Positions 57,001 through 60,000 of a stretch of DNA of 64,000 bases are shown here, one piece after another. Position 1 is the stretch's first letter, and the number at the start of each line of letters is the position of its first letter. The stretch is from IMG/VR virus record IMGVR_UViG_2687453424_000001. One strand, given 5' to 3'. A program made the position numbers. The stretch comes from a virus (taxonomy: Duplodnaviria > Heunggongvirae > Uroviricota > Caudoviricetes).

Positions 57001-60000
57001 TACGTTTGGAAGACATACACCAGTTTCTGGTTGCTTATGTCCAAACTCATTCGCGTACACAATGGCCGCTCGCTCCAGATTGCGTCTGTATTCTTTCTGT
57101 TGCCAGATCACGTCCTGTGCCATGAACTTAATTGGCTTAGCGTCTTCTATGCGCTCAGGCGTTTCGTGAGTACCTTTAGCCTGAATCTGCGCTCTGCTTA
57201 GAGTAGGGCGGTGTAATACTTCTGAACTTATTGCTTCTTCGCGGGCCAGTACGCCGTTAGCTAATGCCTTTGCCTTTAAACGCTCACGACGACGAGAACG
57301 TGAATTGCCTTTGAACTGAGTTCTGCGTGTCATATAGACCTCCTGATGAACTTTGGTGGTGTGGTAGGTGGGAGACCCATTTCGACCTGTTTCGGCCTAC
57401 TTCAATTCGGCAATAGTCCCGCAGGCCTCGCCGCTTTACGTGCGACATATTCCCGTCCATGAACCCTTCACCACACCCCAAAGTTCACTTTGGTTATTGC
57501 GCTTTGTCAGCGCCGTAGATTCATATTCGAATCGTTGTATATTCACCGCCCTGGTGAGTAATGCGTCCTGCTGACGACGATAATAATGAACCAATAGTTC
57601 GACATTATCAAGAACTATTGGTACGAATTTTGGTGATTTATTAACTCTACGAAGTATGATTCTGATATATAAGGAAATTTATTTTTGAAAATGTGGCTGA
57701 TGAAGGTTATGCGGCAGGGATCATAACTGCATGGTTTAGCGAGTTACATCAATAAATACAATTGGTTATGTTTTTTAGGTGGGCGAACGTGAGGCAAAGA
57801 AAACCCGGCGCTGAGGCCGGGCTAGATTTTAAAGTATTTATCTTTTAGAGATGTAGATGTAAAACTTTTCGCCTTTGAAAATTTTTTGTCATCAGAAGGG
57901 CTTATGAACTCATCTTTTTTGTAGGGAACCGCTAATGCTGCATCACGTCTGCGAGGCAGCTTGCTTACTTCCTCGCGCTTTTTCATGATCAGTTATCCTT
58001 TAATAACCTATACAGTTTTGTAGGGGTACATCCTGAGGATATTGTTAAGTTCGTAGCACGCCTTTTCCGCCCATCATCGTATAAACGAAAACCAGTAGTA
58101 GACGAATTTTCTGCGTCAAAAACTATAGACAGTATAGCGTCCCCAGACTTTTTTTGCCATTCGCATGTGCCGTTAGTTGGTTTCGTCATCTGTAGACGCC
58201 AGTCAAGAACGCCATCACTTATAGCTGAGAGATCGTTTAGTACATCTAGTACGGATTGATATCTTTCATTTGGATCTACATGAATGCATTTGTTCACTAT
58301 TGTTATTAATTTTTTATGTATATGGGGAGGATACTCTTTTAATGGATAGCAGCCATTAATTATCGACTCTCTGAGTTGTTCAATCGTGCTAAATGCAGAT
58401 CTTTCTCTTTCAAAATTATCATGTCCAACACACATTCTATATATGGTTAATCCTGCCTGATATATGTCATATGTGAAATTATAATCATTTGTTGATAAAG
58501 AAAAATATTCCGGTGGCACATGAAAATGATATCCAAACTCAGGCGCAGCTCTCGATTCCTCATTGACTAACTGAGATAATCCAAAGTCAGATAGCATGGC
58601 CTCATTTCTGTTTGATATCATAATGTTATTAGGTTTTATATCAAAATGCATAAGACCTTTTGAGTGTATATGATAAAGTCCACTTAAAAATTGAATGGAA
58701 TACCGTATTATCTCCCTGCTTGTAAGATTATTTTTTTTCATTAATTGGTTTAGCGAACCATTATGATAAAATGGCATGGCTATATAGATATTGCTCTCAC
58801 ATTGAGCAGCATACTGAACTTGCACAATATTTGGATGTGCATGTTTATAGAGAAGCCTTGCTTCATTAAAGTAGTCGTCGTGGTTAGTGTTTTCTTTTTT
58901 TTCTATTTCTTTAATCACCAAGTCATGAGCTAGGTGTCTGTCATGAGCCAGATATACTTTTGAAAAACAACCCTGTTCTTCTAGATCACTAATCCATTCG
59001 AATTCTACATCAGCTCTTTTGTATGGAGTTAGCATCCCCTTACCTCCGCAGATAGTGCAGCCAAAACAGCTTCATTTGTTTCAGTTGTAAAACCAGAATT
59101 ATCGATTCCATTTATATTGCGGTGTGACTTCAATATTTCTTTATACTCGATCTCTGTTAGGTTCAATGATGATTTCATGCCAGATTTTCTAATAGTGTAA
59201 TATTTTCTTACATCACTGCTTGAAAATGCTTCTTGAATAACAGCTTCTATATAAAGGCGGTCAATGCTAAGATTATCAGAGTTTGATTCAGTAACGCGTA
59301 TGGCAGCTAATTCAACATTATATAAATTAAGAATGTCGAGGATGTTATTTCTCACATACTTTAATTTTTCTGGTGTGTCTAAGGTCGAAGGTATTTTAAT
59401 AACATCAACACATTTGAGTGCAGACTCATTAGTGCAATATACAACAAAAGATGTAACTTTGGGCGCCGCTCTAACACCTAGTATTCTCATTTTTTATATC
59501 CTATTTTAGAATCAGGCCGCATCTCTGCGACCATCCATCATCCAAACGTCTCTTCACTCATCCGAAGAAGCAGCAATCCGGGTTAGCACGCACAAGCTCA
59601 AGCGCATCAGTCAGCGAAAGTTCAGTACTGTACTGATGCCATTTCATATCCTTCCGCATCCAATAGATTTTCCATCTATCCAGAGAACGTATGTACTTGA
59701 TTCTTGCTGATGGCAGGATGTTTGTTTCACCTGGATTGCCCTGCCACACGGGGCGCTGTTCGCCGATATCTATCGTTTGGTCATTGATGCTATAAACAAT
59801 ATCCAGTTCATTGCGGATATGTTCAGGCGGCCTTATGCTTTCAATGAATTGGTGAACTTCTTTTTTTACTGCTTGATATTCAAGGTCATTGAACGCCATC
59901 TATCCTCCTTACCCAAACGTCTCTTCAGGCCACTGGTTACCAGCTATGTGACGATGAAGTCACGAACTTTTCAGCCACTCCCTTGCCTCGATGTCATCCA

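Follow-up and report, generated by a model that had tools for sequence, protein, structure and literature searches.

We analyzed a 64,000-nucleotide (nt) stretch of DNA from a virus (Caudoviricetes; IMG/VR record IMGVR_UViG_2687453424_000001), which is called the window below. The subject is a 153-codon open reading frame (ORF153) located directly upstream of stk, the gene of a eukaryotic-like protein kinase. We propose, with moderate confidence, that ORF153 is a catalytically inactive RuvC-fold protein that serves as an obligate partner subunit of Stk and gates this abortive-infection kinase, and that it does not act as a resolvase. The conserved unit is composed of two genes, ORF153 and stk. 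Compared with what is known, we rate the result as an already described abortive-infection kinase that is now given a putative obligate pseudo-nuclease partner.

Pairing of ORF153 with Stk-type kinases

The window is prophage 933W. Between positions 57700 and 60000, where both genes lie, it has 100% identity to this Shiga-toxin phage and to many Stx phages. In the 933W record, whose coordinates are converted to those of the window by adding 47885, ORF153 is annotated as L0083/ST933Wp23. The elements of the gene pair are as follows.

59029..59490, minus strand: ORF153 (L0083/ST933Wp23; Phi24B 'res'; P2 of Riley 2012), predicted standalone RuvC-fold protein without the RuvC catalytic Asp and Glu
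57989..59035, minus strand: stk, Hanks-type (eukaryotic-like) protein kinase, from the Pkinase match and the literature
59029..59035, minus strand: stop/start overlap ATGCTAA of ORF153 and stk, from the sequence; a tight junction is kept in related loci
59043..59047, minus strand: GGAGG Shine-Dalgarno sequence of stk, read from the sequence, within the 3' end of ORF153 and 7 nt before the ATG

A preliminary description of this DNA had reported an open reading frame at these positions, overlapping the kinase start by 7 nt. The ORF listing of the window verified the ATG start, the length of 153 amino acids (aa), the minus strand and the overlap. The TAA codon of ORF153 occupies positions 59031-59029 and the ATG codon of stk positions 59035-59033, and the seven letters are common to both genes. 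An AGGA sequence (59502-59499) stands 8 nt before the ATG of ORF153, and stk has its own strong Shine-Dalgarno sequence at 59047-59043. From the overlap, the same description had deduced coupled expression and a fixed stoichiometry. The tightly linked expression holds, but the fixed stoichiometry is overstated because stk carries its own GGAGG ribosome-binding site.

The pairing was surveyed from both genes. On the ORF153 side, one genome per species was scanned, which gave 39 loci that span at least five phyla, with members in Gamma-, Beta- and Alphaproteobacteria, Bacteroidota, Clostridia and Acidobacteriota. A homologue of Stk was found immediately downstream and on the same strand in all 39, with full-length matches at E values of 1e-62 to 1e-133. 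The two reading frames overlap by 1 nt (TAATG) at 11 loci, by 4 nt at 7 and by 8 nt at 12; they are separated by 1-4 nt at 7 loci and by 9-10 nt, with a GGAGG sequence, at the remaining 2. Starting from the kinase, we retrieved 80 viral contigs of IMG/VR with 37-100% identity by means of an alignment of 20 Stk homologues. An ORF153-family gene lies directly upstream in each of the 77 contigs that have upstream DNA, and the other three contigs end at the kinase. In many of these loci, the ORF153-family gene is preceded by a cI-like repressor gene. Such a gene pair was absent in the case of four generic phage kinases (700-800 aa, 24-29% identity), which have no ORF153-family gene beside them.

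The two proteins also diverge together. The distance matrices of 58 non-redundant pairs were correlated with r = 0.86, a value that was not reached in any of 999 permutations, and the mean divergence was equal for the two proteins (0.577 vs. 0.575). The juxtaposition of the two genes is far beyond chance. According to the preliminary description, a link to the kinase would be refuted if homologues never occurred together with kinases. The opposite was observed, with pairing at every locus in both directions and co-divergence, and this data indicates that ORF153 is a dedicated kinase partner.

Among complete E. coli genomes, the pair of ORF153 and stk was present in 225 of 5426 (about 4%), Shiga-toxin prophages included. 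Bacillus phage SPbetaL6 (OQ921346; locus L124, 2504-4056), an SPbeta-like phage of B. subtilis, carries the module with a 4-nt overlap, and its two genes, both annotated as hypothetical, match the ORF153 family with E = 7e-45 and the Stk family with E = 3e-122. In genomes of Flavobacterium and Nemorincola (L027, 1318-5968, and L033, 2964-5987) the module directly follows restriction-modification genes, which in one case encode a C5 methylase, an AAA_5 ATPase and a LlaJI-type endonuclease and in the other the type I proteins HsdM/HsdS. Surroundings of this kind are seen in defence islands. The module was also found inside prophages, as in locus L018 and in many IMG/VR loci with cI-like genes. 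The window locus has the arrangement by which the two-gene module is defined, with the ORF153 gene upstream, on the same strand, and a kinase with intact catalytic residues. We take two genes as the conserved unit because the pairing holds both ways and because a DUF3024 gene and a 54-aa ORF, which also belong to the operon in 933W, accompany it only in some Enterobacterales. For the same reason, these two genes were rejected as core parts of the module.

At five loci, the stk homologue was split by a frameshift or stop next to an intact ORF153 homologue (L014, 6465-7494; L075, L076 and L079, 4001-5046; L081, 2607-3654). A broken ORF153 next to an intact kinase was not seen in the loci surveyed. 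A costly or toxic kinase would lead to such a pattern, but the cases are too few to be tested or to reach significance.

Judging from its sequence, Stk is apparently an active Hanks kinase. The Pkinase domain of Pfam covers residues 21-260 (E = 2e-46), and K42, D132, N137 and D150-F-G are invariant in the 20 aligned homologues. The domain is followed by a C-terminal region of about 75 aa (residues ~271-348; window 57989-58225, minus strand), which has an isoelectric point (pI) of 9.1 and no match in Pfam. Two tryptophans of this region, W279 and W293, are invariant in the same 20 homologues, and the region is kept throughout the partner-bearing subfamily. In the four partnerless generic phage kinases, the match to the Stk profile stops at positions 268-292, short of the C-terminal region. 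Of the kinase models in PADLOC, Stk matches PD-T4-6 and mad6, in both cases via the kinase domain. In published work (PMC3564112), Stk is described as cotranscribed with cI and as aborting HK97 infection. Low kinase activity in uninfected lysogens is likewise described in the literature.

ORF153 is a genuine gene and is expressed. Riley et al. (2012; PMC3342100) analyzed lysogens of phage Phi24B, whose sequence matches the window stretch at 100%, by two-dimensional polyacrylamide gel electrophoresis (2D-PAGE). They reported a protein P2, 'similar to p23 of 933W', of 17096 Da and a protein P3, 'p24', of 13472 Da, and the transcript of P2 was lysogen-restricted. The MASCOT score of P2 was 39, and the scores of P2 and P3 were not flagged as significant (PMC3342100). 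The masses calculated here are 17096.4 Da for the ORF153 product and 13472.2 Da for the DUF3024 protein. Since the calculated and reported masses agree, we identify P2 as the product of ORF153. The ORF153-stk pair is located downstream of cI without an intervening terminator, as are the exclusion genes of prophage pRM operons, and a terminator scan found no terminator-like site on the minus strand between cI and the 54-aa ORF. Our analysis and the cited work show that the lysogen produces both ORF153 and Stk, using the cI (pRM) transcript.

Family, fold and active-site positions of ORF153

The preliminary description had recognized no family or motif in ORF153, which turned out to be wrong. 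The protein matches PHROG 3875 over the entire length (E = 7.8e-91, residues 1-153 to profile positions 1-153) and is named in RefSeq as 'RuvC-like Holliday junction resolvase'. In the Phi24B record it is called 'res, resolvase', and the PGAP labels are 'hypothetical protein' or 'RuvC family protein' in some of the records listed. ORF153 has 75 close homologues, and a library-wide profile search gave 445 clusters at 50% identity for the family. In PADLOC-DB 2.0.0, none of the family models matched ORF153 at E <= 1.

A structure prediction and a Foldseek comparison, both suggested earlier for this protein, pointed to a RuvC-like fold. The AlphaFold2 model of ORF153 has a predicted local distance difference test (pLDDT) score of 91.3, and when this model was used in a BFVD structure search, the top named matches were phage RuvC resolvases. 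According to the model, ORF153 has an RNase H-like RuvC fold. The matches to RuvC sequence profiles stayed below the thresholds, with 14.2 bits vs. a cut-off of 22.2 for Pfam RuvC (PF02075; residues 3-65 to profile positions 1-64) and 12.5 vs. a threshold of 163 for NCBIfam RuvC (NF000711; residues 1-64 to profile positions 1-66).

Conservation was counted in 188 near-full-length members of the family (140-175 aa). G5, R47, R78, E82 and E87 are each present in all 188, R7 is present in 187 and E68 in 186, while position 65 is R or K and position 140 is E or D in every member. No Ser, Thr or Tyr is invariant among the 188 proteins, which disfavors a fixed phospho-switch in ORF153. For comparison with RuvC, we used four RuvC sequences from the PDB; that of E. 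coli was checked vs. 1HJR, and the other three were taken from PDB alignments. A full-length, in-register alignment of the family with these sequences was obtained only when hhalign was run locally and the alignment threshold was set low (MAC, -mact 0.01), at a probability of 16%; global hhalign was unsuccessful.

In this alignment, R7 falls on the catalytic D7 of RuvC and R65 on the catalytic E66, and the same register results from the Pfam and NCBIfam matches. E68 of ORF153 is aligned with Phe69, the junction wedge of RuvC. There are no acidic residues in strand beta-1 of ORF153. D/H138 of RuvC is not conserved in the family, in which position 137 is variable, and of the two carboxylates of the last helix only E140, matching RuvC D141, may have been kept. 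In RNase H-fold nucleases, the aspartate of strand beta-1 is necessary for two-metal catalysis. Because this residue is absent in ORF153, canonical resolvase activity is very unlikely. The resolvase label of PHROG 3875 is not supported by the active-site comparison, and the widespread name 'Holliday junction resolvase' on ORF153 is probably wrong. The two arginines that occupy the former metal site may form, with E68 and E140, a salt-bridge network in place of the metals, or else a phosphate-binding pocket. The net charge (family median 0 vs. +1 to +3 in RuvC) is uninformative as a test of DNA binding.

A role as the resolvase of lytic-cycle recombination was considered and rejected. The catalytic residues are missing, expression is lysogenic, the pairing with the kinase is strict, and 933W has the junction endonuclease NinG/Rap, which is encoded elsewhere, in the lytic operon.

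Proposed role of ORF153 and alternative explanations

In the explanation that we favor, ORF153 and Stk would form a complex, in which ORF153 would hold the kinase inactive as long as the cell is not infected. A superinfecting phage would provide a cue that relieves the block. This cue may be a protein of the phage or a DNA intermediate produced by its recombination functions. The released Stk would then phosphorylate cellular or phage proteins, and the infection would be aborted. As to the part played by ORF153 within this explanation, we tentatively suggest a cue-sensing or adaptor subunit; that it is an inhibitor only is possible but rather unlikely. The first role is favored because ORF153 appears rigid and fully folded and evolves as slowly as the kinase, and because the invariant charged residues R47, R78, E82 and E87 are kept beyond the former active site.

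A bolder version, which we put forward as a speculation with a lesser chance of being right, is that the inactivated RuvC fold senses infection in a two-protein immune module that is widespread, recognizes a product of the recombination machinery of the invading phage and switches on a eukaryotic-like kinase that aborts infection. The recognized product could then be the recombinase of the invader or the DNA intermediates that it makes. HK97 gene 41 is reportedly needed for the activation of Stk, which we treat as a lead and not as evidence. Judging by record order, gene 41 encodes an Erf-like single-strand annealing protein (L122, 3176-3781; NC_002167, 24175-24780), and in the HK97 record erf lies between Gp40 and the genes that precede Gp43 (kil). 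If the gene 41 report is right, the trigger would be a recombination protein, and the second subunit of the module would derive from a nuclease that acts on recombination intermediates.

Several points weigh against the gating of Stk by ORF153 as proposed above. The sequence link to RuvC is weak, as indicated by the hhalign probability and the sub-threshold Pfam score, and no RuvC chain was retrieved when all PDB sequences were searched with the profile of the ORF153 family. The mapping of the residues therefore relies on three alignments that are concordant but individually weak, together with the fold topology. An unconventional active site is conceivable in view of four invariant glutamates (E68, E82, E87 and E140). 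The net charge close to zero and the lack of an aromatic wedge weaken the case for retained binding of branched DNA. The C-terminal domain of Stk could itself be a sensor, and the gating mechanism is something that we infer. Finally, plasmid-borne stk without ORF153 may reportedly have given exclusion, in which case ORF153 would not be strictly necessary when the kinase is overexpressed.

The strongest rival explanation involves only the logic of a type II toxin-antitoxin system. Stk would be toxic and ORF153 would be the neutralizing antitoxin, with the cue sensed by the C-terminal domain of Stk, or with the system firing when ORF153 is depleted. We consider this unlikely, although a part of the data agrees with it: as in hipBA-type modules, the partner lies upstream and its stop overlaps the kinase start, which is kept in more than 100 loci, the literature describes low kinase activity in uninfected lysogens, and the five loci described above have a broken stk and an intact ORF153, the reverse never being seen (numbers not significant). 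The properties of the proteins fit less well. ORF153 is predicted to be a compact, fully folded domain of 153 aa (pLDDT 91), without a helix-turn-helix (HTH) motif or a disordered toxin-binding tail. It evolves at the rate of the kinase and keeps invariant charged surface residues, R47, R78, E82 and E87. Moreover, Stk is a Hanks kinase and does not have the HipA fold, and no toxicity of Stk alone is documented in the literature examined.

It is improbable that ORF153 is a substrate, scaffold or dimerizer without any sensing or inhibiting role. As a dimerizer, a RuvC-like homodimer of ORF153 would join two Stk molecules for trans-autophosphorylation, which agrees with the invariant stripe R78-E82-Q86-E87 on the helix that forms the dimer interface in RuvC. 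As a substrate, ORF153 would be the main phosphorylation target, but it has no invariant phospho-acceptor. The silence of the kinase until infection is left unexplained by this alternative. Least probable of all is that ORF153 is an active nuclease effector, working in phage recombination or switched on by Stk phosphorylation to cut DNA: the RuvC fold, the 'resolvase' labels of PHROG, RefSeq and Phi24B and the four invariant glutamates can be cited in its favor, but near-invariant Arg and Arg/Lys stand in place of D7 and E66 and Glu in place of the wedge Phe69, D/H138 is not conserved, both RuvC profile scores are below threshold, no invariant Ser, Thr or Tyr is available for a fixed phospho-switch, expression comes from pRM in lysogeny, apart from the recombination genes, 933W already has NinG/Rap, and ORF153 never occurs without the kinase in the loci surveyed.

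Operon neighbors and comparison with known systems

The order of elements in the 933W record is pRM, cI, the DUF3024 gene, ORF153, stk, the 54-aa ORF and the terminator tM. Apart from the gene pair, the operon contains the following elements in the window.

60675..60702, minus strand: pRM (pM) maintenance promoter, as annotated in 933W (record 12790-12817)
59960..60667, minus strand: cI repressor gene, which opens the pRM operon of the module, from the 933W annotation
59558..59899, minus strand: DUF3024 gene (P3 of Riley 2012), between cI and ORF153, with a DUF3024 match at E = 1e-30
57822..57986, minus strand: 54-aa ORF (orf54), last gene of the operon, from the ORF listing; phrog_4063
57802..57823, minus strand: intrinsic terminator, annotated tM, with an 8-bp stem of which 6 pairs are GC, then a T-run; it closes the transcript that runs from cI to orf54

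The DUF3024 protein (59558-59899, minus strand) matches the PADLOC candidate defence family PDC-S43 with E = 4e-41. In lysogens, the transcript of P3 (DUF3024) was about five orders of magnitude above that of cI (PMC3342100). It is probably a separate, lysogeny-expressed accessory gene, since it occurs with the kinase module only in some enterobacterial prophages. The product of the 54-aa ORF (PHROG 4063) has a pI of 10.0 and a net charge of +8 and is rich in Ser, Thr and Lys. This ORF starts 2 nt after the stop codon of stk and follows Stk only in the enterobacterial (Enterobacterales) subset of modules; it could encode a lineage-specific third component or a substrate. Outside the operon, a 156-aa ORF (PHROG 1636; window 56421-56891, minus strand) adjoins N. 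A note in the Phi24B record names HK97 among the carriers of this ORF, and Gp45 of HK97 has the same position and the same length.

Among known proteins, RuvC (PF02075; PDB 4ld0, 6lw3 and 1hjr) has the fold in common with the ORF153 model. ORF153 differs from it in the replacement of D7 by Arg, of E66 by Arg/Lys and of Phe69 by Glu and in the unconserved D/H138. Its net charge is about zero and not positive, its scores are below the RuvC thresholds, a kinase always accompanies it, and its expression is lysogenic. In principle, ORF153 as proposed here resembles dead RNase H-fold or RuvC-like modules that are reused for binding or regulation, exemplified by TEFM, the RuvC domain of Cas12k and short prokaryotic Argonautes. 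Those modules are coupled to polymerases, transposases or NADases, whereas ORF153, as a predicted regulator, is coupled to a protein kinase.

RexA/RexB of lambda occupies the same genomic slot and follows the same logic, a parallel that is drawn in the literature: accessory genes that share the pRM transcript with cI are expressed in the lysogen and abort infection by another phage. There is no relation in sequence or fold, and Rex is composed of a sensor and a membrane channel, not of a kinase pair. HipBA likewise has a small upstream partner that is translationally linked to a protein kinase, and the kinase activity of HipA stops growth. In contrast to our module, HipA differs in its kinase fold, and the antitoxin HipB binds DNA with an HTH; for ORF153, a RuvC fold is predicted, and an HTH motif is lacking. 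The published abortive infection by 933W Stk (Tyler & Friedman 2004; Friedman et al. 2011) concerns the same locus. In the published and database view, Stk is a single gene, listed with systems such as PD-T4-6, whereas here the kinase subfamily was always accompanied by the RuvC-fold gene. We found no literature that joins RuvC with a kinase or with 933W/stk, within an incomplete coverage of the literature; papers from a further search, judged by title and abstract, do not deal with this pair.

Stk of 933W, a textbook example of a prophage kinase that aborts the infection by a second phage, is regarded as one gene only. If a dead RuvC-fold subunit is always part of the work of this kinase subfamily, then experiments and defence catalogues that take the kinase by itself miss half of the system. 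In that case, the pair of ORF153 and Stk would clearly exemplify how a nuclease fold has been recruited in bacterial immunity to regulate a protein kinase, in a system that is small and testable.

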